Part shown: positions 4,004 to 38,606 of the stretch, in pieces
Layout of the letters: every line of letters begins with the position of its first letter
Numbering within the stretch: the stretch's first letter is position 1
Assembly (NCBI GenBank): GCA_020721805.1
Contig: DYMB01000001.1
Location: forward strand, 243,149 to 307,148
Direction: 5' to 3'
Source of the DNA: Acetofilamentum sp.
GTDB taxonomy: Bacteria; Hydrothermota; 32-111
Length of the DNA stretch: 64,000 nucleotides
The notes under the pieces: generated by a model
Told to the model about the DNA's origin: nothing
Seen by the model: only the letters and a program-made list of their open reading frames with translations
The model's database searches: none
Made by a program: the position numbers and the translations under genes

Positions 4004-4015
4004 AAGGAGGTTTTT

Positions 4016-5824
4016 ATGTACAAAAAGTTTATTTTTGTTTTTCTGGTTTTATCATTTCTTCTCTCGTTTGCATATGTTGGTCCAAATGTGAAGTATCCAT
4101 TTAAACAGATTTCCTGGGTCGGTGGTTCTGGGCAGGATATTTTTACAGATGAGACAAAATTTCTTTCATCGGAAAGAATACATTTCTCTTTAAATCCTAT
4201 AACACTCGATTATATTGAGGATACTAATTTTACATTGGTATCAACATATCCTTCAGCAGCGGCAGGTAATGTTGGGACATCCAATGGCCTTTTAAATCTT
4301 AATGATACAATATTTGCTTTGGGTGGTTTAACAGCGAACCTATCTTATTCAATCAATAAAGGACAAACATGGCTTACATTTGATACATTACCAGTTAATC
4401 AAAATAATTCTGAACTTCTTACCTTTCAGAAGGTTAACGATACTATATATGTTGGTGGATACTGGGGAGCAGTAAATTTTGCTTTCATATTTAAAAGTTC
4501 AGATATGAAGACATGGGAAAATGTAACACAGCCTGACGGGGCTGCAAGAGTTTATACTATATTATATATTGGAGGTGATACATTTCTTGTAGCAGCAGGG
4601 GATCCAGATCAATCTTCCGCAGATCATGATGGACAGATCTTTAGAACGACAGATCGTTTCCAGACATATGATAAGGTTGATACACTCGGTTATGCTGCAA
4701 TCACCAATATTATAAAATATAATGGCGATACCCTTATCGCTTCAGGTGATAATATTTTATACGGTGAACCTATATTAATTTCAAAAGATAATGGAGTAAC
4801 ATGGGCAGCATCAGGTTCAGTTGACTCAGCTTTTACTTCTTCTGGTAATCCTTTTGCATTACTTTCACTTACAAAAATCGGGAATTATATTTTTACAGGA
4901 TCTTATGGTATTTTTGGTGGTGGAATTTATAGAAGCGGGGATGTTGGCAACACATGGGAGATGATGGACACTCTGAAAACAATACCTGATACCTGTGATA
5001 TAACAGGTTTTTACTCTTTTGATGGTGGCTCAACAATTTATGTCACATCAGGGCTTCCCGGTGTTTTATATAAAACTACCGATGGTGGATATACTTTCAC
5101 ATTTTGCGATTCTTTAACCGATAGTTCCGTAAAAGGTATGGTTAAACTTGGTGAACACACATATGGTGTTGGAGCAACTTCATCATCTTTAGGTGGAAAA
5201 ATCTATTATGACAGTTATTCTAAAAATGGTTATCTTGTTTCAAGTGCTATAAATATTGATAAATATGATACCATACCTGTTTCTGATTATTTTGATCTTT
5301 ATAATGTATTTATTACTTTCAATAAACCACAGTTTACAACTTTTACATTGAAAATGAGATCAGATTCCGATTCAACAATGGTAAATGCACCAGATTGGTC
5401 TTCATGTCCATCTGTAACGACATATAACAATTCTTCTAAGAATCTTACAGATATAACCTCAATAACAAATAAAGCTGGACATCATTATATTCAATATAGG
5501 ATAGATTTTACAACAACAAGGATGGAATTAACTCCATCAGTTGATTCTATATGGATAGAAAAAGTCTCAGGAATTGAGAATCTTAATCTTTTTTCAAAAG
5601 AGAATATTTCCATAACTTTTGCAAAAAATAAAGTTATCATTGATACAAAAGATCAGAGTGTAGTAAAGATTTTTGATATTGCTGGAAGAAATCTTATAAA
5701 TAGGAAACTCGTTGAAGGAAAGAATATAATAAAGACAAATATTTTACCATCAGGTAAATATATTTTAAAAGTATTTAATAATTCAAAAGAAATATACTCA
5801 AAAAGTTTCAATATTATAAAATAG
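4016..5824 (+). CDS. Secreted BNR/Asp-box repeat protein with C-terminal T9SS sorting domain
   Basis: Signal peptide. Repeated S-x-D-x-G-x-T-W Asp-box motifs: SINKGQTW, SKDNGVTW, RSGDVGNTW, TTDGGYTF. C-terminal KIFDIAGRNLINRKL...GKYILKVFNNSKEIYSKSFNIIK is T9SS-type. RBS GGAGG lies 8 nt upstream. Confidence 0.6.
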   Translation: MYKKFIFVFLVLSFLLSFAYVGPNVKYPFKQISWVGGSGQDIFTDETKFLSSERIHFSLNPITLDYIEDTNFTLVSTYPSAAAGNVGTSNGLLNLNDTIFALGGLTANLSYSINKGQTWLTFDTLPVNQNNSELLTFQKVNDTIYVGGYWGAVNFAFIFKSSDMKTWENVTQPDGAARVYTILYIGGDTFLVAAGDPDQSSADHDGQIFRTTDRFQTYDKVDTLGYAAITNIIKYNGDTLIASGDNILYGEPILISKDNGVTWAASGSVDSAFTSSGNPFALLSLTKIGNYIFTGSYGIFGGGIYRSGDVGNTWEMMDTLKTIPDTCDITGFYSFDGGSTIYVTSGLPGVLYKTTDGGYTFTFCDSLTDSSVKGMVKLGEHTYGVGATSSSLGGKIYYDSYSKNGYLVSSAINIDKYDTIPVSDYFDLYNVFITFNKPQFTTFTLKMRSDSDSTMVNAPDWSSCPSVTTYNNSSKNLTDITSITNKAGHHYIQYRIDFTTTRMELTPSVDSIWIEKVSGIENLNLFSKENISITFAKNKVIIDTKDQSVVKIFDIAGRNLINRKLVEGKNIIKTNILPSGKYILKVFNNSKEIYSKSFNIIK

Positions 5825-5837
5825 AGCATTAAGATAT

Positions 5838-5863
5838 AAGGGGTGCAAAAATTTGCACCCCTT
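5838..5863 (+). terminator. Perfect palindromic hairpin (AAGGGGTGCAAA/TTTGCACCCCTT) downstream of the BNR gene
   Basis: A 12-nt inverted repeat forms a GC-rich stem right after the stop at 5824. No clean T-tract follows, so it is a terminator-like or processing hairpin. Confidence 0.4.
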
Positions 5864-6018
5864 AAGAAAAATGTGAAAAATTTTCAACAATTTTCATTCT
5901 TTTTCTATTTCACTACTATTAAATATATATTTAAAAGAGAGTTAAAATGAAAGATGGCATGTTTTTTGCTTAAACAAGATTGTGTAAAGTTTAGTAAAAA
6001 AAATAGTAAGGAGGTAAG

Positions 6019-9000
6019 ATGAAGAAAATCTTAAATTTAATGCTTCTTTTATCTCTCCTTATTCTTTTTACCGGTGCAAAATCTTTTTCGCAAAAGAGTG
6101 TTGATTTTAACACCTCACCGGTTATGAATGAGGGGAATTTTGTGAATCCACTTGCTGATGGATTCAAATCTGTTGTAAAAGGTAAAGAGATGGTAAAAAG
6201 TTTGAAGGATCCAAACATTATCCATCTTCCTTACCATGATTTTGATGTTAGAAATGGTGAACCGAACATTCCTTCAGATTTAAGAGCAAAATCTTCAAAG
6301 GATGGATGGAACTATTACATCGTTAAATTTTCAGGTCCAGTTCTTGAAAAGTATAAGAGTGAACTTTCAAACTATGATGTTATGTTTGAATGGCCTATTC
6401 ATAACTATGGTTACATAGTTAAAATGAATGATGTCAATATTGAAAAGATTTCTAAACTTCCATATGTGAAGTTTATTTCTTTGTGGCATCCAGCCTACAA
6501 AGCCTCACCAAAATTCTTAAACTCAAAATCTGAACAAAAGAAAGAGATCGTTGTTCGTTTGTTCAGAAACGGTTCATATTATGAAGTTTTGAATTCACTT
6601 GAAAAACTTGGGGCAAGGATTATTGACAAATCTGAGCCTACGACAGCACTTGCAACTTTTCTTGTTGAAGTTCCAGAAAATATGATAGCAGAGATCGCAA
6701 AGATCAAAGATGTCTATCTTATGATGCAGTATGCAAAAAAATATCCACTAAACGATGTTGGAAGATCCATTATAATGAATGGTTCAACGACTGTTGGTGA
6801 TACTACAATATGGAAAATGGGAATTCATGGCGCCGGGCAGATAGTAAATGTAACAGATTCTGGAATTACTATTGGTCATTATGCGTTTTATGATCCATCA
6901 GTTTCACTTACAACATGGGGATATTATCCAACACATAGAAAAGTTATCGCTTATCTTCCAACCCATCCTAACTTCATTGATACATTAGATTTTGGAGATG
7001 GGAATAACCATTCATATCATGGAACACATGTAAGTGGAACTGTTGCTGGAGACGATTCTCTTCCTGGAGGAACTTCAAACTATGATGGTATAGCCAAACA
7101 TGCGAAGATACTTTTTATGGATGCTGGAAACACAGTTGATAATGGTTTGTGGATTCCAATAGATTGTTATTCAATGTTTGATACTATGTATGTTCATGGA
7201 GCAAGGATAACTTCAAACTCTTATGGGCCAGATGTTGGGACATATCCGGAACTTGGAGGAGCATATGATGAAGGATGCCAGCTGGCTGATGCCTATATGT
7301 GGGATCATAGAGATTTCAATGTTCATTTTGCTGCTGGAAATAGTGGTTCCAATGCAAAGACTATTGCTGGGACAGCCTGCGCAAAGGATGTTTATGCTGC
7401 AGGTTCACATCCTGAAAATTCAATTAACAATGTTTCTTCATTCTCTTCAAGAGGTCCAACCGCTGATGGAAGGTATGGTGTTACTTTGTTGACTCCAGGT
7501 GAAGCTGTTAGGTCAGCGGATGGTTCAACATCAGGTTCAAGTTCAAATTATAAAGATATGGATGGAACATCGATGGCAACACCATTCTCAGCAGGTGCTA
7601 TAGCATTGATTAGGGATTGGCTTGCACAGGGATTTTATCCAACTGGAACAAAAATACCTGAACACAGCATTACAAATCCATCCTCTGCTCTTATAAGAGC
7701 ACTCGCTGTAAACTCTGCAAACGATGCTGGACAGACGATCCCAAACAACGACTATGGTTTTGGTAGATTACAGTTAAACAATGCTCTATTCTTTTCAGAC
7801 ACAGCGGCACATTCACCAAAGGCTATTGTTTTTGATGATAATCATGAAGGTGTGTTAACAGGTGAATATGTTGAATATCAATTCAGTCTTACTGATACTT
7901 CTTCTGAATTAAGGGTAACACTTGTATGGACAGATTATCCGGCACCATTCTTTGGAGACAATAGTGTCACAGATACAACTCTTGTTAACGATCTTGATTT
8001 AGAGGTATACAATCCATCTGGAGCACTTGTTTCCGGAACCGACCATCTAAATACCATAGAACAGTATAGAAATACAACTCCAGCAAAAGGTATTTGGAAA
8101 GCAAGGGTTGTTGCAACAGATTGTCCTGTTTCTCCACAACCTTATGCAATCGTTGTTACATACAATCCTCTTAATGTAGCAAATGGTTCTGTAAAATTTG
8201 ATAAAGCAACTTATTCTACTATAGATTCTATAGCAACACTTATCGTAACCGATATGAATTTACCTGATAATGCTACTTTTGATATAAATGTTTACTCTCA
8301 ACTTGGTGATACAGAGTATGTCACTCTTACAGGAACAACTGGCCTATTTACTGGGACAGTTCAGATGGCTTATCAGGCAGCTATATCATCAAATGTTAAT
8401 GATGGGTACCTTGGGGTAAACAAGATTGATACTATATGGGCTATGTATAGTGATACAAACCCAGCAGAAACTTTGAGAGCAAGGGCTTTGATAGATAACG
8501 CTTCATTCACAATTTACAATGTAAGGTGCGAAAAGGCTGAAGGCACGAGGGCATTCATAGCATGGTCAACAACTGAACCCACAACAGGGAAAGTTTACTA
8601 TGGCACAACGACTTCACTTGGCTCTGAAACCGCTGAGAATCCAAACCTTGTTTATGAACACTCAGGTGACCAGGCTATAATTGTTTCTGGACTTACTCCA
8701 AATACTATCTATTATTATGATGTAGAATCTAGAGATAATAAAGGAAATAGTGTCAGGGATGACAATAATGGCTCTCATTACCAGTTTGCAACAGTAGATC
8801 TTTCAAGTGCTGACATTCTTGTTGTTGTTACCGATGATAATCTTCAAGGAGAACTTTTTGCACATCCAGAATTTTTGACTTATGCGATAGAACAAGGTGG
8901 ATGGAATTATGCCTGGTATCAGACCTCACTCAACAATTTGGGTCAGTTACCCGTTACCGATCTTTTGAGAAATTATAAGGCAATATTCTTGCAGTCAGGG

Positions 9001-10863
9001 CAGGAAAATTATCCAGAACTCACGAAACCACAGGAAGAATCTTTGAAAACATATGAAGCGGGTGGTGGAAGAATAGCGTATACTGGTCATGATTTTGGAT
9101 GGGCTATGGCTTCAAGTGATGGTTTTAGTGCTGTTGGAACAAACAGAGATGATTCGTTGTTTGTTATCAACTATATGATGGGAAGATATGTTGGTGATAT
9201 AACTGCAACCGGTAACTTCACATTATATGGTGTATCAGGTGATCCTATATCTGGTTCATATACAGGAGGTGTTCCATATAATCCATACAGACAAGGTGCC
9301 GATGGAGATTCTATGTATGGAGTTTCAAGTGCTTTTGTTGCTGGAACATCTACAAATGTTTGGAGATGGAACAATGCTTCAGGTCCAATTGTTGGAACAA
9401 AATGGGAATCAAACAACACTCTTGGAACAACAGGACAGGGTGTATGGGGCGGATATAAGACAAGGGTTATTTTCAACGCTTTTGAGATAACCCAGATAGA
9501 TACTACCGATCATACCTCAGCAACAAGAACAAATATTTTGAATAATGACCTTATCTGGCTTATAGGGCATGATCATCCTGATGTTTCAATAACATCACCA
9601 ACAACAGGCACAACATATACTACAAACACAATTTCTATAGAATGGAGTGCAACCGCTTATGGTGGTGCTGCAATAGATACAACATTCATTTACTATTCGC
9701 CTAACGGTGGTGATTCCTGGATACTTATTACTAAAGGGACAACTCTAACATCACCATACACATGGGATGTTTCAACACTTCTTAATGGAGTCAAATACAG
9801 GGTTAAGGTAAAAGTTAATGATAAAGATGTTTATCCTTCAATGAGTGGTGAAGCAACAACAGGTAACTTTACTATTTTAAGAAATGGTGGAGATTTCCTT
9901 GGTCCTATAATTTATGCTGGTTCAGTTCAGGCAAATCCATCACCTGTAGGTAACGCGGAAGGACTTGGAGTTCCAACATCATTTACTATCACAGCAACCC
10001 TTTCAGATTCAACAACCGGATTGTCAAATATTTCTGCTGCGGAATGGTCATATGGTTCAGAACCCGCACCAGCCGGTTCTGGAAATCCTATGAGTGCTGA
10101 TGATGGCACATTTGATAGTGTTATTGAAAAGGTTACAGCAAATGTTTCTTCAACAGTTGGATGGCCTGTTGGTGAAGTAAAGATTTGGGTCAGAGGTCGT
10201 GATGCTTCACCAGCAAAGAGTGCAAATAACTGGGGCGATGCATCTGAAGGATCGGTGGTAGTTGTTGATGATGCCACTACACTCACAAGGGTTCAGATGA
10301 CAGAGATATCAGCCATTTCCGATTTCAACTCCATAACCTTAAAATGGTCAACAACATCCGAAGTGAACAATGCTCAATGGATAATAGAAAAATCACTTGA
10401 TGGTAAGAATTTTGAAAAGATAGGCACATTGCTTGCAAAGAATAGACCATCAACCTATACTTTCACTGATACTAAAATAAATGGTGGCACGGTATATTAT
10501 TACAGAGTCTCCGATCTTTCAAAATCTGGTGTTAAGACAGAGCATCCAGTGATAAAAGTCGTAGCACAGGGTAAACCAAAACCTGTTTCATACGCTTTAA
10601 CACAGAATCAACCTAACCCATTTAACGATGTTACTATGATAGAGTTTGCGGTTCCAGTTAAAGGAAAGGTAAAACTTGAAGTTTACGATATAACTGGAAA
10701 ACTCGTAAAAACTCTTGTTAATGAGGTAAAGGATGTATCCTGGTATAAAGTTAGATGGGATGGTAAGGACAATTCTGGTAATCAGGTCTCTTCGGGTGTC
10801 TATTTCTACAAACTTTCAGCGTCAGATTATGAATCATCTCTTAAGATGACATACCTTAAATAA
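6019..10863 (+). CDS. Giant (1614 aa) secreted multidomain subtilase (S8) with FN3/Ig-like modules and C-terminal T9SS (FlgD-Ig-like, TIGR04183-type) domain
   Basis: RBS AAGGAGG at 6008-6014 and a signal peptide. Canonical S8 motifs: VNVTDSGI (Asp), HGTHVSGTVAG (His), FAAGNSGSN (Asn), GTSMATPFSAGAIALI (Ser). FN3-like segments follow (YYGTTTSLGSE...TPNTIYYYDV). The C-terminal LTQNQPNPFNDVTMIEF...LEVYDITGKLVKTL...WDGKDNSGNQVSSGVYFYKL is a T9SS sorting domain. Confidence 0.8.
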   Translation: MKKILNLMLLLSLLILFTGAKSFSQKSVDFNTSPVMNEGNFVNPLADGFKSVVKGKEMVKSLKDPNIIHLPYHDFDVRNGEPNIPSDLRAKSSKDGWNYYIVKFSGPVLEKYKSELSNYDVMFEWPIHNYGYIVKMNDVNIEKISKLPYVKFISLWHPAYKASPKFLNSKSEQKKEIVVRLFRNGSYYEVLNSLEKLGARIIDKSEPTTALATFLVEVPENMIAEIAKIKDVYLMMQYAKKYPLNDVGRSIIMNGSTTVGDTTIWKMGIHGAGQIVNVTDSGITIGHYAFYDPSVSLTTWGYYPTHRKVIAYLPTHPNFIDTLDFGDGNNHSYHGTHVSGTVAGDDSLPGGTSNYDGIAKHAKILFMDAGNTVDNGLWIPIDCYSMFDTMYVHGARITSNSYGPDVGTYPELGGAYDEGCQLADAYMWDHRDFNVHFAAGNSGSNAKTIAGTACAKDVYAAGSHPENSINNVSSFSSRGPTADGRYGVTLLTPGEAVRSADGSTSGSSSNYKDMDGTSMATPFSAGAIALIRDWLAQGFYPTGTKIPEHSITNPSSALIRALAVNSANDAGQTIPNNDYGFGRLQLNNALFFSDTAAHSPKAIVFDDNHEGVLTGEYVEYQFSLTDTSSELRVTLVWTDYPAPFFGDNSVTDTTLVNDLDLEVYNPSGALVSGTDHLNTIEQYRNTTPAKGIWKARVVATDCPVSPQPYAIVVTYNPLNVANGSVKFDKATYSTIDSIATLIVTDMNLPDNATFDINVYSQLGDTEYVTLTGTTGLFTGTVQMAYQAAISSNVNDGYLGVNKIDTIWAMYSDTNPAETLRARALIDNASFTIYNVRCEKAEGTRAFIAWSTTEPTTGKVYYGTTTSLGSETAENPNLVYEHSGDQAIIVSGLTPNTIYYYDVESRDNKGNSVRDDNNGSHYQFATVDLSSADILVVVTDDNLQGELFAHPEFLTYAIEQGGWNYAWYQTSLNNLGQLPVTDLLRNYKAIFLQSGQENYPELTKPQEESLKTYEAGGGRIAYTGHDFGWAMASSDGFSAVGTNRDDSLFVINYMMGRYVGDITATGNFTLYGVSGDPISGSYTGGVPYNPYRQGADGDSMYGVSSAFVAGTSTNVWRWNNASGPIVGTKWESNNTLGTTGQGVWGGYKTRVIFNAFEITQIDTTDHTSATRTNILNNDLIWLIGHDHPDVSITSPTTGTTYTTNTISIEWSATAYGGAAIDTTFIYYSPNGGDSWILITKGTTLTSPYTWDVSTLLNGVKYRVKVKVNDKDVYPSMSGEATTGNFTILRNGGDFLGPIIYAGSVQANPSPVGNAEGLGVPTSFTITATLSDSTTGLSNISAAEWSYGSEPAPAGSGNPMSADDGTFDSVIEKVTANVSSTVGWPVGEVKIWVRGRDASPAKSANNWGDASEGSVVVVDDATTLTRVQMTEISAISDFNSITLKWSTTSEVNNAQWIIEKSLDGKNFEKIGTLLAKNRPSTYTFTDTKINGGTVYYYRVSDLSKSGVKTEHPVIKVVAQGKPKPVSYALTQNQPNPFNDVTMIEFAVPVKGKVKLEVYDITGKLVKTLVNEVKDVSWYKVRWDGKDNSGNQVSSGVYFYKLSASDYESSLKMTYLK

Positions 10864-13881: not shown

Positions 13882-14949
13882 ATGCATAAAAAACTTTTCA
13901 TTCCAGGGCCAACCGAAGTTGTAAAAGAGGTAAGAGAGGCGATGGCATGTGAAATGATAGGACACAGAATGAAAGAATTTTCAGATCTTTACAATCAGGT
14001 TATCCCAAAATTGCAACAGGTTCTTTATACAAAAAATGCTGTTTTACTCTTCACATCTTCAGCGACAGGCTGTATGGAGAGTGTTGTGAGAAATCTTTCA
14101 AACAAAAAGATACTTTCCTGTATGTGTGGTGCCTTTTCGGATAGATGGCATGATATCGCTATAAAGAATGGTAAAAAAGCTGATCCTTTACAGATAGAGT
14201 GGGGTAAAGCGATAAAGCCAGAGATGATCGATGAAAAATTGAAAACCGGCGAGTATGACCTTGTTACACTTGTTCATAATGAAACCTCTACTGGAGTTAT
14301 GAATCCGATTAAAGAGATAGCCGAAGTTATGAAAAAATATCCAGATGTTATCTTTGCTGTTGATGCTGTATCATCTCTTACAGGTTATAAGATAGAGGTT
14401 GATGCACTTGGGATAGATATTATACTGGCAGGTGTTCAAAAATGCTTTGCACTTCCACCAGGACTTGCGGTTATGACCGTTTCAAAGAAGGCTGCTGAAA
14501 AAGCAAAGACTGTTGAAAACAGAGGTTATTATTTTGATATAGTTGATATGCTAAAGTACCATGAAAAAGGTCAAACACCATCAACACCATCCGTATCACA
14601 TATAAATGCCTTGAATGTCCAACTCGATAGAATGCTTGCAGAAGGTATGGAGAACAGGTTCGCAAGACACAAAAAAATGGCTGATATGATATTTACCTGG
14701 GCTAAAGAGAAAGGTATAGAGGGTTTCCCTGAAAAGGGTTATGAGTCAAGGACGGTTGTTACTTTGAAAAACAATAGAAATTTCAACATATCGGAACTCA
14801 ACAAAGAGTTGGGCAAAAGAGGTAAAACCATATCAAACGGATATGGTAAATTAAAGGAGATAACTTTTAGAATAGCAGCTATGGGAGATCTGATGCCACA
14901 GGATATAAAGGAACTTCTTGATGATATTAACGATATCCTTAAAATTTAA
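13882..14949 (+). CDS. Class V (AGXT-family) aminotransferase, probably phosphoserine aminotransferase
   Basis: N-terminal LFIPGPTEV typical of the SGAT/AGXT family, with a PLP-fold aminotransferase body. It is immediately followed by and co-oriented with serA. Confidence 0.7.
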   Translation: MHKKLFIPGPTEVVKEVREAMACEMIGHRMKEFSDLYNQVIPKLQQVLYTKNAVLLFTSSATGCMESVVRNLSNKKILSCMCGAFSDRWHDIAIKNGKKADPLQIEWGKAIKPEMIDEKLKTGEYDLVTLVHNETSTGVMNPIKEIAEVMKKYPDVIFAVDAVSSLTGYKIEVDALGIDIILAGVQKCFALPPGLAVMTVSKKAAEKAKTVENRGYYFDIVDMLKYHEKGQTPSTPSVSHINALNVQLDRMLAEGMENRFARHKKMADMIFTWAKEKGIEGFPEKGYESRTVVTLKNNRNFNISELNKELGKRGKTISNGYGKLKEITFRIAAMGDLMPQDIKELLDDINDILKI

Positions 14950-15859: not shown

Positions 15860-15863
15860 ATGA

Positions 15864-15896
15864 TGGAGGGATCCTTTAAGGATCCCCCTTCTTTAT
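15864..15896 (+). terminator. Intrinsic terminator hairpin after serA (GGGATCC-TTTAA-GGATCCC followed by a T-rich tract)
   Basis: A GC stem followed by CTTCTTT, directly after the serA stop. Confidence 0.5.
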
Positions 15897-18633
15897 GTTA
15901 AAAGATATTTTTCATAAAATTCATAAAAAAATAGTTTTTGATAATTTTATAGATAGCCTGCTTATTTTTACTTTTTGGGGAATAACATCGTTAGTAGTTT
16001 TTGCTTTCATAGATCTATTCTTCTACCATTCTGAAAAATTATTTTTACTTTTTATTTTATCTTCTTTGATTTTTTCCTTTAAAACTTTTTTCATTTTTTT
16101 GTTAAATGAAAGAGAATCTATAAAAAGATACAATCTTTTGAATAAAAATTTGAAAAATGTCCCACTCACGATCTATGAGAATATTGAAAAAAATAATGGT
16201 TATATTGAAATTCTAATGAAGAATTTCACAGAGGATACCATAAAGAAGAGTATTTTTTATGATCAAAAAAGAAGGGAGACGATTGTTAGAAAAAATTTTT
16301 TTATCCTTTCAGTTTTTTTGATTTTAATAATAATGTTTCCGTTAGTTTTTACCAACTTTTTTAATTTGACTGAAAAAATTGTTGTTTTGAAAGATTGCTC
16401 AAACAAGGTTAAGATTCTTTCATTCAACTATGGTAGCATAGTTGGAAAACTTCTTGTGACAAACGGTTCAGAATTTTTTCCCTATATCGATGGTATGGAT
16501 TATCCTTACGGTTTAAAGATCTTTTTCGTTGGTCCAAAAGTTCAATCGAATATTTTACCTGTGAAACTTTTGAAAGGTTTTAAAATAGATTCCATATCAA
16601 GTCTTGTTAAACCTTTAAAATATACAGGAGTAAAAAATTATAATGTATCCGGAAATATTTTTGATCTCCCTGAATTCTCAGATGTTGATGTTAAAATATC
16701 TTTTAACGACCAGACCCATCGGAAAATATTTTTTAAAAATTTATCCTCCGATAGTGTATATAAAATTTTTAAAGGGAAATATTCAGATTCGATTAAAATG
16801 AATGTTGTTAAAGATAACACTCCACAAGTTTTAATTCTGATGGATAAAAAAGATATTTCAGCAAAAAAATATTTAACGATACCTGTTATGTTTAAAGATG
16901 ATTACGGTATAGATTCTTTATATTTGATTTTGAAAAAAAATGATGATTCTCTAACTAAGGGATACAAATTTTATGGTCTTGATACCATTTTAATTTTTTC
17001 TTTAGATATGGAATCACTTACAGATTGTGAACAATTATATTTCAAGGGGAAAGATAACAATCCTGAAAGAAGACAACTCGGTTTTTCAGAAAGATTATAT
17101 TTAAAAGAAAACTTTTTGTTATCTTCAATTTATGATTCAACATATGTCAAAAACGAGTTTTTAAAAGATATTGATAGATTCTCTGAAAATGTTTACGATA
17201 TATTAACAAGGAAAGATAATTCGAATCTTGAAAAAAAGATCGAGGAGTATAGAGAAAGACTGAACGAATTGAAGGAGAATATTGAAAATGTTAAGAAGGA
17301 AATTAAAGATCTATCAGAATATAAAATACCAGATAAAATTTATAAAGGGATGTTTGAAATTAAAAAAGAGATAGAAAAACTTGATAAAAATTTACTTTCA
17401 AAACTTGATTCGATTTTGAAGAGTTCAAAAAAGATAGAAAACGATTTTGAAAGAAAAGAGATCCTCGAAAAAATAAAAAATCAGGACAGTTTAATCCAAA
17501 AAAATTTAGAAGAATTAAAAAAAATGATAAAGGATCTTAACACGCTTTTTTTACTGAACCAGATGAGGGAAGATATAGAAAAACTTTTACAGAAACAGGA
17601 TTCTATCATATCCAATGAAAACATAAAAGGTCAAGAAGAGATAACACGGTCTCTGGGAAAAATGAAAGAAAAAAGTTTAAAAGATTTGCAACTGAACGAA
17701 TTTGAAAAACCTATTGACGAAACATATAAACTTTCAAAAAAATCAGAAAAAGATCTTTCGGAACGAAAGAGAGTAAAAGAAAAATTGGAAAACTTAAAAA
17801 AGGATCTTGAGAAAAAAATTGAACAACTTGAGGGCAGCGAAAAAAGATATGATAAATATCTTGTAATATATTCTATACTTTTCATAAATGAGATTGTTGA
17901 TAGCACACAGGATAGGGAATTGATAAACGATCTGTATATGTCAATAATAGATTATGTTGATGAAAGCCCAACATCACCTTTGACAATACTTTTAAAAACA
18001 GCACAGAGGATTGTGGTTTTAAGTGAAGGTGATTTCACATCATTAAAAAAACATAACCTTTCTATAATTCTTTATCTTTTAAAAGAGAATCCATCAGGTG
18101 AATCTACCGGTTCTATGGAGGATATATCTGAAAAATTGTCAAAGATATCAGAAGAACAGATGAAGATCTCTCAGACACTCTGGGAAATGTTCAATAAAAG
18201 CGAAATTTCAAAAGATATGCTTGATATGCTTTCTGATCTTGAAAAAAAACTTTCTCAAAAGATGAAGGAAATTGGAGAAAAAACTGGAGATGATGTTGGT
18301 GAAAACATATCATCACTTGCTGATTCTTTGAAAGATGTATCGGAAGAGTTAAAAAAAGGAAATCTTGACGAAGAGATTCTAAAAAAACAGGAAAGAGTTT
18401 TAAAGAGGATGTTGAATTTAACAAAATCGATATACAGAAAAGGAATAGAGGAAAAAAGGGAGAGTAAAACTGGAAAAGATTACAACCTCCCATTCAGACT
18501 TATCACGCCGGAAGATTTTGGTTATAAAAAATATTGGGAATTGAAAAAAAAATATAAAAATATTTATGATTTTAAAAGAAAAGAATGGATACCTCTTTTA
18601 AAACTTTATTACAGGGAACTTATAAATGAATAG
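15895..18633 (+). CDS. Hypothetical 912 aa membrane-anchored coiled-coil protein (possibly DUF4175-like)
   Basis: Two N-terminal TM helices (LLIFTFWGITSLVVFAFIDLFF, LFLLFILSSLIFSFKTFFIFLL) and a third at ~aa 135. A beta-rich central region is followed by ~430 aa of K/E-rich heptad coiled coil. No enzymatic motif recognised. Confidence 0.5.
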   Translation: MLKDIFHKIHKKIVFDNFIDSLLIFTFWGITSLVVFAFIDLFFYHSEKLFLLFILSSLIFSFKTFFIFLLNERESIKRYNLLNKNLKNVPLTIYENIEKNNGYIEILMKNFTEDTIKKSIFYDQKRRETIVRKNFFILSVFLILIIMFPLVFTNFFNLTEKIVVLKDCSNKVKILSFNYGSIVGKLLVTNGSEFFPYIDGMDYPYGLKIFFVGPKVQSNILPVKLLKGFKIDSISSLVKPLKYTGVKNYNVSGNIFDLPEFSDVDVKISFNDQTHRKIFFKNLSSDSVYKIFKGKYSDSIKMNVVKDNTPQVLILMDKKDISAKKYLTIPVMFKDDYGIDSLYLILKKNDDSLTKGYKFYGLDTILIFSLDMESLTDCEQLYFKGKDNNPERRQLGFSERLYLKENFLLSSIYDSTYVKNEFLKDIDRFSENVYDILTRKDNSNLEKKIEEYRERLNELKENIENVKKEIKDLSEYKIPDKIYKGMFEIKKEIEKLDKNLLSKLDSILKSSKKIENDFERKEILEKIKNQDSLIQKNLEELKKMIKDLNTLFLLNQMREDIEKLLQKQDSIISNENIKGQEEITRSLGKMKEKSLKDLQLNEFEKPIDETYKLSKKSEKDLSERKRVKEKLENLKKDLEKKIEQLEGSEKRYDKYLVIYSILFINEIVDSTQDRELINDLYMSIIDYVDESPTSPLTILLKTAQRIVVLSEGDFTSLKKHNLSIILYLLKENPSGESTGSMEDISEKLSKISEEQMKISQTLWEMFNKSEISKDMLDMLSDLEKKLSQKMKEIGEKTGDDVGENISSLADSLKDVSEELKKGNLDEEILKKQERVLKRMLNLTKSIYRKGIEEKRESKTGKDYNLPFRLITPEDFGYKKYWELKKKYKNIYDFKRKEWIPLLKLYYRELINE

Positions 18634-19936
18634 AAATAAAAAGATAATTTTTATTTTTTTTCTTTTTCTTTCCTTTATTGGTCTTCTGGCAAAGGGAATA
18701 GAGGAAATTGTTAAAGATGGCGATTTTAAGATAATACTTAAAGAACTGGATGCATCTTCAAAAAAAGATAATATTTTGAAAATTATATTTTTAAATAGGG
18801 AGAGTTTTAAAAAACCTGATTATGAATATTTTTTGAGAAATCTGATAAAAAGGGATGGTGTTGTGGAAATCTACCTTTCATTATTCAAAAAGGATCGGAT
18901 AAAAGAGAATGAATATATTATATTTCTAAAATATTTTAAGGATAAAAATGATAAAAAATTATATTATGATTATATAGTTAGATTTTCTGATGAAAAAAAT
19001 CTTGATTACAAAAAATTGAGTGCTCAATTTGCAGCGGAGAGTAGACTTGAAGATCTATACGAACTGTTGCCCAATCACAACAGGTTAAAAGTTTACATTG
19101 CAGCAAGGCTCTTGTATAAAACAGGGAAGGAAGAATTTTCTAAATATATTTCAAAGAGTGGGAAAGAAAATATTCTGGACATATTTGAATCTGGCATCCT
19201 TAGTATGCAGAACAAAATTTTAATTTTAGAAAATGCTAAAAATAAAAATGTTATAGATAATAAACTGTCAGAAGATATCTTTAAGATATCTTTCTATGAT
19301 TTTAAAAAAGATTATACCGAATTTTTAAAAAATTCGAAATATGAGTTTTCGTATAGGAATTTTCGAAAAGTTTTTAAAAGTGAAGAGACATATTTATCAA
19401 GAGAGGATTCTTACTTCTATCCTTTGACACTTCTTTTTTTAAACAATTTCAATGATTTAAAGATTTTTCTTGAAAAGGATAAAACGATCGATCCTGAAAG
19501 AAGAATATATGTTTCTTTTCTTTTGAATCTTTTTTTATCAGATGAAGAAAGATCTTTTGATAACCTTATTAAACTTCTTTCATCTGGAGTTGATGATTTT
19601 GTAAAGTTAAGTGCTCTTGAATTTTATTTGGTTTCTAAAAAAATAAATGATGGAAAATTCCTGCAATACTATTTGATGGGTGATAGAGAGAATATGAAAC
19701 CCTTTATAAAAAGTATAGGGAAAAATTCTATTTTTTATTATGAGATGCTTGTAGAGGAAAAAAGATTTGATGAAATTAAACTTTTTAAATTTAAAAATTT
19801 TGAAAATGAGGCACTTATGACACAGATACTTGTTTACGATATAAAGAATGGTATGGTTGATAAATATGATATCGAAGAGTTTTTAAAAAAGTATCAGAAG
19901 AGTCCTTTTAAAAATCTGTTTATCAAATATTTATGA
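18626..19936 (+). CDS. Hypothetical secreted alpha-helical protein, 436 aa
   Basis: Signal peptide MNRNKKIIFIFFLFLSFIGLLA. Start overlaps the upstream stop (ATGAATAG). Helical-repeat-like composition with no recognised motif. Confidence 0.45.
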   Translation: MNRNKKIIFIFFLFLSFIGLLAKGIEEIVKDGDFKIILKELDASSKKDNILKIIFLNRESFKKPDYEYFLRNLIKRDGVVEIYLSLFKKDRIKENEYIIFLKYFKDKNDKKLYYDYIVRFSDEKNLDYKKLSAQFAAESRLEDLYELLPNHNRLKVYIAARLLYKTGKEEFSKYISKSGKENILDIFESGILSMQNKILILENAKNKNVIDNKLSEDIFKISFYDFKKDYTEFLKNSKYEFSYRNFRKVFKSEETYLSREDSYFYPLTLLFLNNFNDLKIFLEKDKTIDPERRIYVSFLLNLFLSDEERSFDNLIKLLSSGVDDFVKLSALEFYLVSKKINDGKFLQYYLMGDRENMKPFIKSIGKNSIFYYEMLVEEKRFDEIKLFKFKNFENEALMTQILVYDIKNGMVDKYDIEEFLKKYQKSPFKNLFIKYL

Positions 19937-21147
19937 AAAAAATATTTATAATTTTAATTTTTATTTCTTTAAAAATTTATCCTTACATTTTTATTCCTAT
20001 GGATGAAGAGCAGTCCGATCATCTCAGATCGTATGGTGTTGTTTTTAGAGCCTTGGAAGATAATGTTAAGGTAGAGTGGCTTTTAAACTACAGGGGAGGT
20101 AGTTTTATAATTCTATCAGATCTTTATGAAAAAGATTGTATAAAGAATGGTGTTCTTTTTTACAACATTTCTCAGGAGAGAAGGGAATATTTTAACTCTT
20201 TATGTGAAAAGATGGTTCTTCTCGAAAAAGCTCCAAAATTGGCAGTTTATTCTCCACCTGATAAGGAACCATGGGATGATGCTGTAACACTTGTTCTTGA
20301 TTATGTTGGGATAAAATATGATGTTATTTATGATAGGGAAGTGTTGAACGGAAAGATTTTTGAATACGATTGGTTGCATCTTCATCATGAAGATTTTACA
20401 GGGCAGTTTGATAGATTCTATATTTCTTCCTTTTATCAACCCTGGTTTAGAAAGATGTATAATATGAACAAACAGATAGCAAAAGACCTTGGTTATGATA
20501 AATACTGGAAAGTCAAAAGGGATGTGGCGGCGCAGATAAAAACTTATGTTTCAAATGGTGGATTTTTGTTTGCGATGTGTTCAGGGACGAATACTCTTGA
20601 TCTTGCATTATCGTTAGGTTATCAGGATATTATACCTTCAATACTCGATAACGATGGAACCCAACCGCCCACACCCGACTATTCGAAAACACTCGCATTT
20701 GAAAATTTTATGCTTAACGATAAACCTGACATTCAAATGGATGATATAGACTATGAACCTTCAGATAAAATGTCGTGGGAGAATAAAAAGTTTAAATTGA
20801 AAAAATTCTCACCAAAATTTGATCTCGTGGAAACGATGTTGACTCAGAACCATACCCAATTCATAAATGAATTTCTTGGAAGAACAACATCCTTTGATAA
20901 GAAAAAAATAAAAAAGAATGTCGTGATACTCGCTGATAGTTATGACCCGAAATATGCCAAATACATACATGGTTTTTTCAAAGATGGTTTTTTTACCTTT
21001 CTTGCAGGGCATGATCCTGAAGATTATGTTCACTATGTAAACGATCCACCAACTGATTTGCAATATTTTAAAAACTCTCCGGGATACAGACTCATTCTGA
21101 ACAATGTTCTTTTCCCCGCATCAAGGGAGAAAAAAAAGAAGACATAA
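19933..21147 (+). CDS. Hypothetical secreted protein, 404 aa, possibly class I glutamine-amidotransferase-like (DUF4159/ThuA-like) fold
   Basis: Signal peptide. The segment GGFLFAMCSGTNTLD resembles the nucleophile-elbow Cys of the GATase1/DJ-1 superfamily. ATGA overlap with the upstream gene. Confidence 0.4.
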   Translation: MKKIFIILIFISLKIYPYIFIPMDEEQSDHLRSYGVVFRALEDNVKVEWLLNYRGGSFIILSDLYEKDCIKNGVLFYNISQERREYFNSLCEKMVLLEKAPKLAVYSPPDKEPWDDAVTLVLDYVGIKYDVIYDREVLNGKIFEYDWLHLHHEDFTGQFDRFYISSFYQPWFRKMYNMNKQIAKDLGYDKYWKVKRDVAAQIKTYVSNGGFLFAMCSGTNTLDLALSLGYQDIIPSILDNDGTQPPTPDYSKTLAFENFMLNDKPDIQMDDIDYEPSDKMSWENKKFKLKKFSPKFDLVETMLTQNHTQFINEFLGRTTSFDKKKIKKNVVILADSYDPKYAKYIHGFFKDGFFTFLAGHDPEDYVHYVNDPPTDLQYFKNSPGYRLILNNVLFPASREKKKKT

Positions 21148-21148
21148 C

Positions 21149-22288
21149 CTATTTTTTCTGCTCGATAATTTTTTTATAAAATTTTTCTATTTTGATTATA
21201 ACATTCTCCCATGAATATTCTTTTGATTTAATCAATCCATTTTTTCTGAAGAATGCTCTTTTGTTTTCATCCTCTGTTAACTCGATGAGTTTTGATAAGA
21301 GTTCAGAGTCATCTTCATTGTTGAAAAGCAATCCATCCTTTTTGTCATCTATAACCTGAGAGTATCCATGGATTCTGGATGCTATTATCGGGGTTCCGCA
21401 GGACATCGCTTCAAGTAATACTATGCCGAAAGATTCACCCCCAAGTGCAGGTGAACAATATATGTCCGCTGTCCTATAGTATTTTGGTATATCCTCTTTT
21501 TTCACATAACCTGTAAAGATTACAGATTTTTCTATACCATATCTTCTCACAAGATCTTTTGCAGTTTTTTCAAGTGGTCCTTTACCAGCGATAATGAGTT
21601 TAGCCTCATTCTTTATTTTGACGAATCTGTTAAAAACATCTATTATTTTTAAAACACCCTTCCTTAAGTCAAGTCTTCCAAGAAAAAGTATTTTGGGAAA
21701 ACCTTCAATATTAAAATTTTCACCTCTTTCAGTAAAAAAATCGGTATCAACTCCTGCCGGGATTATCTCATACTCTCCAGGGAAATAAGGTTCCATTGCT
21801 AATTTCGCAGTCTGTGATATGGCAAGATAACCTGATATTTTGTTAAGATATTTTTTATAAACCATTTTAAAAATAGAGGAACCTGATTTGTAAAATTTAA
21901 ATCCAGCATTTAAAAATGCAGCTATATTTATGCTATTTGAAAAATGTAATGCAAAAAAAGATAAGGATGGAAAGAATGGTCCGTTTAGATGTATTATATC
22001 AAAATAATTTTTATTGAGAAAATTTTTTACCGATGGGTAGATATCCGTTCCAAAAGCCATTGTTGCATAGGATCTGTTCAAAGGTATCATCAAAACCTTT
22101 CCAAACCTGACAACCCTATCCTCATCCGTCTGATTCTTATAATTTGTTGTTAATATGGTTACATCGTTGCCATTCTTTTTCAAATATTTTGAAAGGTAAT
22201 ATGTATACTCGGAAACTCCGGATGGATATGGATAATATGGATCCGAAACCACAAGTATTTTTAAATTTTTTTTATCTTTTTTCATCAT
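21149..22288 (-). CDS. Glycosyltransferase family 4 (GT-B)
   Basis: C-terminal GT4 motif EAMSCGTPIIASRIHGYSQVI...DGLLF with E-x7-E-like signature. Length 379 aa. Confidence 0.8.
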   Translation of the reverse strand: MMKKDKKNLKILVVSDPYYPYPSGVSEYTYYLSKYLKKNGNDVTILTTNYKNQTDEDRVVRFGKVLMIPLNRSYATMAFGTDIYPSVKNFLNKNYFDIIHLNGPFFPSLSFFALHFSNSINIAAFLNAGFKFYKSGSSIFKMVYKKYLNKISGYLAISQTAKLAMEPYFPGEYEIIPAGVDTDFFTERGENFNIEGFPKILFLGRLDLRKGVLKIIDVFNRFVKIKNEAKLIIAGKGPLEKTAKDLVRRYGIEKSVIFTGYVKKEDIPKYYRTADIYCSPALGGESFGIVLLEAMSCGTPIIASRIHGYSQVIDDKKDGLLFNNEDDSELLSKLIELTEDENKRAFFRKNGLIKSKEYSWENVIIKIEKFYKKIIEQKK

Positions 22289-23594
22289 AAAAATCTTTTC
22301 CTGAAAGGTATTCGAATAGAATCGGTTCTTTCATTTTTACAATATCAGATATGGTATTTGAAATATCTCTTATCTCCCACTGTGCATGTTTATCCGATCT
22401 GAGACGGACAAAATGATAGATCTCTCTAACATTCATTTTTAGAATAACTTTTCTTTTTGTAGAGTTGAGCACGGCATATTTGTAAAGTAGAGGATTCTTG
22501 CCATAAAGTGATAATGAGAGTTCTTTGCTTTCCAGAGCAAGGTTTAACAACTTTTTTTCAAAGGGAGTATTCTTTAAAGTTTCAGGGATAACAGGTTTAG
22601 AGTTTATATCGTAACCCTGAGTTATTATTGTAGCCATTCTATGTCTTTTCAATTGAGCGTAACATGATGCTGAACATGATATTAGAAATGTGAAATCAAC
22701 AAGTTCAAACTCTCTTGGAGGTTTATCAAAAGATTTTAAATTTTTAAAAATATTTTTTATAAAATTCTTTTTTGAATTTTCATCGTAATTCTTGATGGAA
22801 AGATTTTTACCCTCCCTGTGGAAAAGATATGATGAGATAATTCTTTTAAATCCATCATAATCATATTTTAAAAGTTTAACACTTTTTTTTAAAGTAGATC
22901 CTTTGGGTATGTTTTCAAGATCTTTGAATTTTTCATCGGGTTGAGTGTACTTTATTATTGATGGGGAGAGTCTTGTCGATTCTTTTTCAAGTTCGTTTGC
23001 AATGTTGTAAAGTTCAACAATGTTTTGACTTTTCAATCTTGAGATCATATATTCAAGAGTTCTACCGTTAAGAGTCATACCACACTGTGTTAGGGTTGAT
23101 AATGGTAAAAAATATCTGGAATCTTCATTGGATGTTTGTCTATCATTTTTCTGGTTTAAATACTCATAGGATTTTTCATAAAGTTGAAAACATCTTTTGT
23201 TAAAATTGACAAATTTTTCAAGTAGATCTTTATCATCCTTCAATTCGTATGGGATTATAAAACCTGTATGTGTGTTGACATATCTCTGTGATTTTTCGGT
23301 AAAGGCTGCAAGTCTATGGTGTTGTATATATTCTATCGCTAACCTTGATATATCAACAAGATCAAAATTAAAGACAGCATGTTCAGCTATCGATGAGTGT
23401 CCGAGTTGAAAAACAATTTTTTCATTGGATCTTCTTGCGTTGACTATATCCTTTGCGGATTCTTCCCTTAACTCCTTTATACTCTTTGAAGATCTTGATA
23501 TCCTTGCATATGCTGCACATAGAGTTTCAGGTGTTTTTATATAACGATCACCAAATTCTCTATCATAGTTGAAACCTGAAAGTTCCACCTTCAT
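22272..23594 (-). CDS. thyX: FAD-dependent thymidylate synthase, tandem-domain form
   Basis: The first half contains HSSIAEHAVFNFDL...YIQHHRLAAFTEKSQRY, which aligns to the ThyX signature. The second half repeats an RHR-like motif (LKRHRMATI). Length 440 aa. Confidence 0.7.
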   Translation of the reverse strand: MKVELSGFNYDREFGDRYIKTPETLCAAYARISRSSKSIKELREESAKDIVNARRSNEKIVFQLGHSSIAEHAVFNFDLVDISRLAIEYIQHHRLAAFTEKSQRYVNTHTGFIIPYELKDDKDLLEKFVNFNKRCFQLYEKSYEYLNQKNDRQTSNEDSRYFLPLSTLTQCGMTLNGRTLEYMISRLKSQNIVELYNIANELEKESTRLSPSIIKYTQPDEKFKDLENIPKGSTLKKSVKLLKYDYDGFKRIISSYLFHREGKNLSIKNYDENSKKNFIKNIFKNLKSFDKPPREFELVDFTFLISCSASCYAQLKRHRMATIITQGYDINSKPVIPETLKNTPFEKKLLNLALESKELSLSLYGKNPLLYKYAVLNSTKRKVILKMNVREIYHFVRLRSDKHAQWEIRDISNTISDIVKMKEPILFEYLSGKDFYDEKR

Positions 23595-37618: not shown

Positions 37619-38305
37619 TCACCTCTTGTCAACATTTAAATTTTCTCTTAATTTTTTAGGAATGTTTTCATTTGTTATCAAAATTTCCTTCTCTGTTGTA
37701 AATAGAGAGGATGCCCCTTTATTCCCATATCCTGAAACGGTCAATCTATAATCATCTAGTTTTATTCTAAGAGAGTTAAAAATGGGAATTTCAGAACAAT
37801 AATATATTGAATCGTTGTTCACTTTTACTGGAAATACTATATAGTTGTCATTGTTTAGATTAAACGATCTCCAGTTTGTCGAATCGACATGATTTATCCA
37901 TATCATTATATTGGATATAGGTGAATCGAAAATAAAATTTCCACCGGGATTTACAAATTTGAGCGGTGTCTCACTGTTATATTGAACTTTAAAAGTATCT
38001 ATTAGATAATTATCCTTTATATTATGGAATGTTTTTATCTTTAAAGTTTCCTGTGAAGTTATATAATCTGTTTCAAGTGAAAAACCATCGGATTTTAGAT
38101 CAAGAAGCAAAAATCTTACATGGAATGAGTCGTAAGGAATAGAATCCTTAACATATTCAACAAACTGCCCTGTGGACAATGGTAATGGGTTAAAAATCCT
38201 AACCTGATTTTTTTTATCTATGCAATTTATAAAAAGCAGCAAAAATAAAAGATAACTAAACCGATTTAGCGATCTTAACAAGTTCTTTAAAAATATCTGG
38301 TTCAT
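37619..38305 (-). CDS. Hypothetical lipoprotein-like secreted protein
   Basis: N-terminal MNQIFLKNLLRSLNRFSYLLFLLLFINC resembles a signal peptide plus lipobox Cys, with a beta-rich body. The start is uncertain and the 5' end overlaps the rplT 3' end by >=24 nt in another frame. Confidence 0.4.
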   Translation of the reverse strand: MNQIFLKNLLRSLNRFSYLLFLLLFINCIDKKNQVRIFNPLPLSTGQFVEYVKDSIPYDSFHVRFLLLDLKSDGFSLETDYITSQETLKIKTFHNIKDNYLIDTFKVQYNSETPLKFVNPGGNFIFDSPISNIMIWINHVDSTNWRSFNLNNDNYIVFPVKVNNDSIYYCSEIPIFNSLRIKLDDYRLTVSGYGNKGASSLFTTEKEILITNENIPKKLRENLNVDKR

Positions 38306-38606
38306 GTATAGCCATCTCTGATAACTGTTTTCTATCAAGAAATATGTTAGATTTTTTCAATCCATTTATAAATTTTGAATATGATATATTGTTATTTCTG
38401 CAAGCTATATTGATCCTTGTTATCCATAATGATCTTGTTTCAGATTTTTTCTTTTTTCTATCCCTGTATGCATAGACCAGAGCTTTTGTTGCTGCAGATC
38501 TTGCTGATTTATATGCGTTTGATTTTTTACCGAAGGAACCTGAACTTCTTTTAATCCATTTTTTTCTTTTTTCTCTAGTTATCTGTGAATTCTTGACTCT
38601 TGTCAT
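38256..38606 (-). CDS. rplT: 50S ribosomal protein L20
   Basis: MTRVKNSQITREKRKKWIKRSSGSFGKKSNAYKSARSA...RDRKKKKS... is a clear L20. Confidence 0.92.
   Translation of the reverse strand: MTRVKNSQITREKRKKWIKRSSGSFGKKSNAYKSARSAATKALVYAYRDRKKKKSETRSLWITRINIACRNNNISYSKFINGLKKSNIFLDRKQLSEMAIHEPDIFKELVKIAKSV

Follow-up and report, generated by a model that had tools for sequence, protein, structure and literature searches.

A DUF4175-P2-P3 gene trio of the WOR-3 lineage as a reduced envelope gene cluster with a predicted GATase1-like secreted protein

The gene trio and its three products

A stretch of 64,000 nucleotides (nt) from contig DYMB01000001.1 (Acetofilamentum sp., assembly GCA_020721805.1), called the window below, carries three consecutive, overlapping genes on its forward strand. 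A first-pass annotation made from the sequence had placed open reading frames (ORFs) of 912, 436 and 404 amino acids (aa) at 15895-21147, and all three were confirmed. Pfam and NCBIfam searches with their products, P1, P2 and P3, gave no match at threshold. According to the analyses presented here, the trio is a reduced, lineage-specific variant of a gene cluster of the FCB group with the order DUF4159-DUF4175-TPR-P3 (TPR, tetratricopeptide repeat), and P3 is a candidate envelope enzyme with a predicted class I glutamine amidotransferase-like (GATase1) fold. The three genes are as follows.

15895-18633, forward strand: P1, 912 aa, apparently a shortened, divergent DUF4175-family inner-membrane protein
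18626-19936, forward strand: P2, 436 aa, a predicted secreted all-alpha repeat protein (TPR-like solenoid), lineage-restricted
19933-21147, forward strand: P3, 404 aa, a predicted secreted GATase1-like protein of a large, unnamed FCB-wide family

The genes for P2 and P3 are joined by a 4-nt ATGA overlap, whereas those for P1 and P2 share 8 nt, ATGAATAG, and the initial description of both junctions as ATGA-type thus holds for the second only. Identical or related trios were seen in other assemblies, including an identical JGI metagenome contig, indicating that the genes are real. The closest named relatives of the window are candidate division WOR-3 bacteria.

P1 can be divided into four parts.

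15955-16353, forward strand: three predicted transmembrane helices (residues 21-39, 49-67 and 135-153), with Kyte-Doolittle values of 2.2-2.9 in 19-residue windows
16372-17082, forward strand: residues ~160-396, a probably non-helical, beta-rich extracytoplasmic region, Pro/Gly-containing and aromatic-rich in composition
17083-17964, forward strand: residues ~397-690, a K/E-rich, Pro/Gly-poor, helical or coiled-coil-like stalk, from composition and weak coiled-coil matches
18094-18624, forward strand: residues 734-910, a conserved C-terminal domain with the Q-x-R-V/I-L-x-R-M-L motif common to DUF4175-type proteins

The three hydrophobic 19-residue segments agree with the three N-terminal transmembrane helices noted at first. 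The loop between the second and the third is K/R-rich, hydropathy windows revealed no further hydrophobic segment after residue 153, and everything past the helices is predicted to be periplasmic. The beta-rich region has the motifs P-x-Y-(T/S) and DDYG in common with DUF4175 proteins (hhalign columns). In the stalk, K and E together make up 34% of the residues, runs of 82 and 93 residues contain neither Pro nor Gly, and matches to the coiled-coil regions of SMC/Rad50 are weak.

The direct comparison of P1 with Pfam DUF4175 (PF13779) gave 11.7 bits (E 0.062, residues 287-351 only) against a gathering score of 27.3 bits, and the P1 relative P0123 does not match PF13779 at all. However, when a profile of six WOR-3 P1 proteins (A5) was aligned by hhalign with a profile of ten DUF4175-type proteins (A6), whose members score 37.6-45.5 bits on PF13779, the two matched with a probability of 99.9% and an E of 8.5e-32 over 675 columns, covering P1 residues 217-912. 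In a phmmer search P1 retrieved nine DUF4175 proteins of ~1100 aa (E 8e-10 to 1e-5), and its C-terminal 180 residues resemble the C-terminus of a 1118-aa protein on the Marinimicrobia-type contig L004 (BLASTP E 3e-10), which itself exceeds the Pfam DUF4175 threshold (38 bits). Because of this profile homology to proteins above the Pfam threshold, P1 is, judged by its sequence, a shortened and divergent DUF4175-family protein, in line with its earlier description as DUF4175-like. Our literature search found almost nothing on DUF4159 and DUF4175, and nothing on P3 or this type of DUF4175 protein; a mention of "DUF4175" for AdvA of A. baumannii refers to a short stretch near the N-terminus of a cell-division protein and was set aside as uninformative here.

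Four segments of P3 are conserved throughout its family; residue conservation was counted in 205 aligned homologues.

20377-20406, forward strand: HLHHEDFTGQ, residues 149-158, an invariant loop after strand 147-150, where GATase1 proteins have their oxyanion loop
20557-20586, forward strand: GGFLFAMCSG, residues 209-218, a putative "nucleophile elbow" made of strand 211-215, Cys216 and helix 218-228 (DSSP)
21007-21027, forward strand: GHDPEDY, residues 359-365, with the candidate residues His360 and Glu363, following strand 352-357
21130-21144, forward strand: KKKKT, residues 400-404, the C-terminal tail (K403 in 203 and T404 in all 205 homologues)

The AlphaFold2 (AF2) model of P3 has a predicted local distance difference test score (pLDDT) of 83.8 and a predicted template-modelling score (pTM) of 0.87. 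Foldseek returned 26 matches at E <=0.001, nearly all of them GATase1-like (2gk3, 3fij, 6vtv, 7d4r, the GH42 middle domain). The fold matches include STM3548, the GH42 middle domain, lin1909, PuuD and SpuA, with E values of 2e-6 to 1e-3 and target-normalised template-modelling scores of ~0.5, and the ThuA-like structures 1t0b and 4jqs fall just past the 0.001 cut-off (E 1.5-1.6e-3). P3 thus has, on the predicted structure, a GATase1-like fold, which bears out the earlier suggestion. The same suggestion had been made to depend on conservation of the cysteine in GGFLFAMCSG, and Cys216 is invariant (205/205). His360 is likewise present in all 205 homologues and Glu363 in 204; in the model, the three residues sit where the topology of a GATase1 fold canonically places its triad, and they form a candidate triad. 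In the loop at 149-158, H149, H152, E153, D154, F155, G157 and Q158 are each found in 205/205 homologues, a conservation that is partly built in because HLHHEDFT was among the search patterns with which the loci were collected. The C-terminus of the family is Lys-rich and ends in Lys-Thr across more than 10 phyla, which is unusual for an exported protein; that this tail serves as a docking peptide is speculation.

P3 is predicted to be exported, since it has one N-terminal hydrophobic, signal-like segment by hydropathy. More than 8000 homologues were scored, and P3 shares 46-53% identity with other groups; across phyla, identity within the family is ~47-50%. Homologues occur in Marinimicrobia, Calditrichota, KSB1, Latescibacterota, Cloacimonadota, Zixibacteria and Ignavibacteria, as well as in Flavobacteriia, Sphingobacteriia and Bacteroidales; they are also present in the cultured Caldithrix abyssi (e.g. 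WP_006928631.1) and in Pedobacter. Even the family profile of P3 has no Pfam, NCBIfam or PDB sequence match.

The first-pass annotation had regarded P3 as DUF4159-like, and this part of it did not stand. The window protein does not match Pfam DUF4159 (PF13709), on which one of 28 homologues reaches E 0.1. By hhalign, P3 and DUF4159 align over 16 columns with a probability of 42%, confined to the helix-strand stretch before the elbow; extending the register by eye sets the Asp of DUF4159 GGFLHADDNYG opposite the P3 Cys. True DUF4159 proteins (217-228 bits, ~220 aa) are encoded by separate genes in the same clusters. Because a separate co-clustered gene exists and the alignment spans so few columns, P3 was rejected as DUF4159; the two appear to be distinct genes and at most distant relatives.

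P2 also has one N-terminal hydrophobic, signal-like segment by hydropathy, and its AF2 model (pLDDT 84.4) is an all-helical repeat with 27 helices past that segment, as expected from its earlier description as a helical secreted protein. Its best PDB fold matches are TPR/PPR solenoids (IFT70, APC/C subunits), at E 0.03-0.3, none of them significant. The family is small, with nine matches in a word-indexed search and 11 cluster representatives in an exhaustive profile search of 1.84 billion. P2 lies between the DUF4175 protein and P3, the place taken by a TPR protein in other phyla. P2 does not match the Pfam TPR repeats, BLASTP detected no similarity between P2 and the TPR proteins of the clusters, and hhalign of the respective profiles (A2 vs A3) gave a probability of 0.4%. 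Homology of P2 to these proteins was consequently rejected; since hhalign finds none, the equivalence is only one of position and fold class. By predicted structure only, P2 is a secreted TPR-like alpha-solenoid restricted to the WOR-3 lineage.

The P3-containing cluster in other genomes

The gene context of P3 was surveyed at 59 loci whose upstream flank extends over at least 7 kb, taken from species-representative genomes and further fetched contigs. The arrangements found are listed below.

DUF4159-DUF4175-TPR-P3 (full cluster): 9 of 59 loci
DUF4175 with P3 in other arrangements: 2 of 59 loci
TPR-P3: 7 of 59 loci
DUF4175-P2-P3 (WOR-3 clade, window included): 3 of 59 loci
P3 alone (mostly Bacteroidota, often after dnaB): 38 of 59 loci

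On the Marinimicrobia-type contig the order is DUF4159 (226 aa), DUF4175 (1118 aa), TPR (641 aa) and P3, with P3 last. One Latescibacterota chromosome extends this order to DUF4159 (228 bits)-DUF4175 (45.5 bits)-TPR-P3-MoxR-DUF58, where MoxR scores 208 bits on Pfam AAA_3 and DUF58 scores 166 bits. In a second Latescibacterota species the order is DUF4175-TPR-P3-(HEAT/PhyH)-MoxR-DUF58, and in a third (L036, 11199-13570) P3 is followed by MoxR and then by a MurD-like Mur ligase. The last neighbour may be compatible with a link to peptidoglycan and, being a single case, may also be a coincidence. MoxR lies next to P3 at three of the 59 loci, namely L089 (full cluster), L040 (another DUF4175 arrangement) and L036 (P3 alone). 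A BatA-type von Willebrand factor A (vWA) membrane protein was found in none of the orthologous clusters examined; on this point the first-pass annotation, which gave BatA as usual company of DUF4175/DUF4159-like proteins, is not supported.

The WOR-3 relatives keep the overlapping trio at ~47% P2 identity, and a more distant relative (L092) keeps it with both flanks different. A search of the 800-nt gap that precedes the trio in L092 turned up no hidden DUF4159 gene. Since no DUF4159, MoxR, DUF58 or vWA gene lies within the 64 kb of the window, the trio is a reduced variant of the FCB-group cluster, specific to its lineage. The first-pass annotation had considered a stripped-down system, and the orthologous cluster, with MoxR-DUF58 added in Latescibacterota, supports this; of the earlier reading as a whole, the DUF4175-like P1, the GATase1-like P3 and the reduction were retained, and only the role of P3 as the DUF4159 component was given up.

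Two loci have a HemN/HemW-like radical-SAM gene as neighbour. In L001 (8886-10004) it is directly upstream of P3 with a 4-nt overlap, and in L016 (6550-7650, Calditrichaceae) directly upstream of TPR-P3 and apparently in frame with the TPR ORF; the two loci belong to unrelated lineages. An apparent TPR-P3 fusion in L017 (8030-11242, a 1070-aa ORF from a metagenome-assembled genome of Ignavibacteriales) was rejected as an artefact, the ORF crossing a masked run of N. Likewise, where P3 seems to carry a long N-terminal extension, in L013, L024 and L041, this was attributed to ORF over-extension in high-GC DNA.

Surroundings of the trio in the window

The trio is flanked by housekeeping genes. 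Upstream lie genes for a serC-like aminotransferase and a serA-like dehydrogenase; downstream, in convergent orientation, are those for a GT4 glycosyltransferase, ThyX, DNA ligase and SecA. A hairpin is found in the 35-nt gap (15860-15894) between the stop codon of the serA-like gene and the start codon of P1.

15868-15886, forward strand: GC-rich, terminator-like hairpin with a stem of 8 pairs (5 GC) and a T-rich tail

Hairpins are present at the same place in the relatives L008 (7240-7267) and L010 (7235-7264), with different stem sequences; the stems of the window and of the two relatives read GGGATCC/GGATCCC, GGGGGAT/ATCCCCC and GGGGGGACA/TGTCCCCC. The T-rich tail belongs to the window hairpin only and is missing from the L008 and L010 copies. 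The element may be a terminator, an attenuator or a translational element for P1. As for the serA-like gene itself, its longest ORF begins with TTG and overlaps serC by 32 nt (14918-14949). Gene calls on identical public contigs start later, giving 299 or 312 aa instead of 313 aa, and the true start is therefore uncertain.

The absence of MoxR, DUF58 and BatA genes from the window, as noted in the first pass, was corroborated by two approaches. Pfam scans covered 43 of the ORFs that reach 150 aa, leaving aside the ligase and SecA genes and four ORFs that are short or overlapping, and phmmer searches compared bona fide MoxR, DUF58 and DUF4159 queries with every ORF of at least 80 aa. A run of genes on the forward strand at 49.9-63.8 kb was considered as a MoxR/DUF58/BatA operon and rejected, as it encodes ETF, sugar-modifying enzymes, an M1 peptidase and LeuRS. 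By the Pfam scans, the remaining regions of the window hold housekeeping genes.

A few other genes in the window deserve mention. The ThyX homologue (22272-23594, reverse strand) has 440 aa and two Thy1 domain matches, and because of these it looks like a tandem-duplicated flavin-dependent thymidylate synthase. At 1850-10863, three consecutive genes encode large secreted proteins. The first (717 aa) and the third (1614 aa) are S8 subtilases, and the third bears a FlgD_ig/type IX secretion system (T9SS) C-terminal sorting domain; the second, of 602 aa, matches Por_Secre_tail weakly. Together they indicate that this WOR-3 genome encodes cargo for type IX secretion. For three ORFs, at 54383-56500 (705 aa), 59301-60581 (426 aa) and 37619-38338 (239 aa), Pfam gave no match at the thresholds applied; the first of them lies upstream of the M1-peptidase gene and overlaps it.

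Proposed function, alternatives and known systems

We lean, by a narrow balance of the evidence, towards the view that the trio is a conserved unit for a cell-envelope complex, reduced from the FCB cluster, with P3 as its catalytic part. In such a complex P1 would be anchored in the inner membrane, its beta-rich domain, long helical stalk and C-terminal domain extending into the periplasm. TPR domains often bind C-terminal peptides, and P2 might act as an adaptor that bridges P1 and P3, possibly through the C-terminal Lys-Thr tail of P3. P3 itself would work as an amidohydrolase or acyl-transferase with a Cys-His-Glu triad. Its target would be an amide or gamma-glutamyl-type bond in some component of the envelope, for which peptidoglycan stem peptides are the most obvious candidate. 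If a MoxR-DUF58 pair is encoded elsewhere in the genome, it may assemble or remodel the complex as a chaperone; for MoxR systems in general, a role as assembly chaperones has been proposed (PMC3893208, PMC5700661). A broader proposal, which we put forward tentatively and consider rather unlikely as it stands, makes P3 the periplasmic Cys-His-Glu effector of an FCB-wide envelope-maintenance machine, held by a TPR or solenoid adaptor on a DUF4175 stalk and serviced by MoxR-DUF58 where these are present.

Several observations weigh against a catalytic P3 working in a reduced cluster. P3 stands alone at 38 of the 59 loci surveyed and is therefore independent of adjacent P1 and P2 genes; the window holds none of the MoxR, DUF58, vWA/BatA and DUF4159 genes searched for; the resemblance of P2 to TPR solenoids is weak, and P2 shows no homology to the TPR proteins of the clusters; and our literature search found no experiments on any member of the P3 family. 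Other points concern the candidate active site and suggest a different role, that of a non-enzymatic module for binding or assembly, in which the numerous invariant His, Asp, Glu and Cys residues would hold a metal or ligand; the trio would then be a purely structural or sensing scaffold of the envelope. This is the chief competitor, a possibility to be taken seriously and yet a doubtful one, and on this view P3 would resemble the GATase1-like domains of the GH42 middle, ThuA-like, DUF4159 and GldG/IFT52 types. Several of the best structural matches of P3 are non-catalytic GATase1-like domains, and DUF4159, which aligns at the elbow, places its Asp opposite the P3 Cys in the by-eye extension. 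The motif of P3 reads H-D-P-E and has one residue more than the usual H-P-E. The additional invariant cluster HxHHED gives a hint of metal binding instead, and together with H30, H307, H367 and several Asp it is atypical for glutaminases. Confidence in the model is low at both invariant loops (mean pLDDT 59 for residues 361-370; 58 and 59 for the two loops), as would be expected with a cofactor missing. However, a single Cys is kept in 205/205 homologues across more than 10 phyla, at the elbow and with an invariant His/Glu pair past the last strand, and the catalytic proteins PuuD, SpuA and lin1909 are also among the fold matches. Given the conservation of Cys216 and its pairing with His and Glu, catalysis is the simplest explanation.

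It has also to be considered whether the trio and the cluster work independently of MoxR-DUF58, the adjacency in Latescibacterota being incidental and the system not of the Bat/MoxR type. MoxR or DUF58 occurs within 10 kb of P3 at only three of 59 loci, all in one phylum; neither the window nor the Marinimicrobia-type clusters contain them, and no cluster examined has a BatA-type vWA membrane protein. On the other hand, MoxR lies 3' of P3 on the same strand in three Latescibacterota species despite their differing neighbourhoods, and an operon of the type RL3499-RL3502 in Rhizobium reportedly combines DUF4175 and DUF4159 with MoxR-DUF58. We regard such independence as improbable. The idea that P3 is a cytoplasmic, glutamine-dependent asparagine synthetase B derives from database names, the family being called only "hypothetical protein" or "asparagine synthetase B" in NCBI and UniRef, with the latter name given to many members. 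It can be taken as effectively refuted: P3 matches no asparagine synthase or class II GATase hidden Markov model (HMM) and no PDB AsnB sequence, its predicted fold resembles class I GATases and lacks a synthetase domain, and it has an N-terminal export signal. As no Pfam, NCBIfam or PDB sequence match supports it, the name looks like a propagated misannotation.

Returning to the trio as a reduced envelope unit with a catalytic P3, its interest lies in what it offers for related clusters. Members of the P3 family regularly accompany DUF4175 and TPR proteins and, in one phylum, MoxR-DUF58 as well, and by its model the family looks like the carrier of an intact cysteine-hydrolase triad. P3 is thus a concrete, testable catalytic candidate for MoxR-DUF58-linked envelope clusters, which cause stress and envelope phenotypes in several bacteria. 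The analysis also puts right a misannotation and shows what a minimal form of the system, with three genes, consists of. If P3 proves to be the catalytic effector, it would provide the first enzymatic activity and substrate for envelope clusters of the DUF4159/DUF4175/MoxR type. The hypothesis can be tested directly, because homologues are present in the cultured Caldithrix abyssi and in genera with tractable members (Pedobacter, Flavobacteriia).

Among known systems, the IFT70-IFT52 pair provides an analogy to P2-P3. The TPR superhelix of IFT70 is the best, yet weak, fold match of P2 (E 0.03, not significant), and its partner in the matched structure, IFT52, has an N-terminal GATase1-like (GIFT) domain. 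In both cases a solenoid is paired with a GATase1-like protein; this is an analogy only, with no sequence relationship. Another comparison is offered by the Bat/MoxR operons, which have stress and envelope phenotypes and no known mechanism (PMC5700661, PMC11834572). Like the P3 cluster, the MoxR-DUF58-vWA-TPR operons of this kind link envelope-associated membrane, TPR and unknown-function proteins to MoxR-DUF58. In contrast to them, the window and the orthologous clusters examined have no vWA/BatA-type protein, and it is only in Latescibacterota that MoxR-DUF58 adjoins P3; nor has P3 been described as a member of Bat operons.

With the DUF4175 (PF13779) proteins, P1 has in common the N-terminal transmembrane helices, a large extracytoplasmic region and homology across ~700 residues that include the conserved C-terminal motif. 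It differs from them in being ~200 residues shorter, in falling below the Pfam cut-off (11.7 vs 27.3 bits) and, in the window, in having no DUF4159, MoxR or DUF58 neighbour. P3 in turn shares with the GATase1 superfamily (C26/PuuD/SpuA, ThuA-like, STM3548-like, GH42 middle and DUF4159) the predicted core fold, the strand-Cys-helix elbow and a candidate His/Glu pair past the last core strand, and both DUF4159 and BPL_N align with the stretch of P3 before the elbow. However, P3 matches no family HMM of this superfamily, and it is set apart by an extra N-terminal alpha/beta domain of ~80 residues, large insertions, H-D-P-E in place of H-P-E, the invariant HxHHED loop, a predicted export signal and the C-terminal Lys-Thr.

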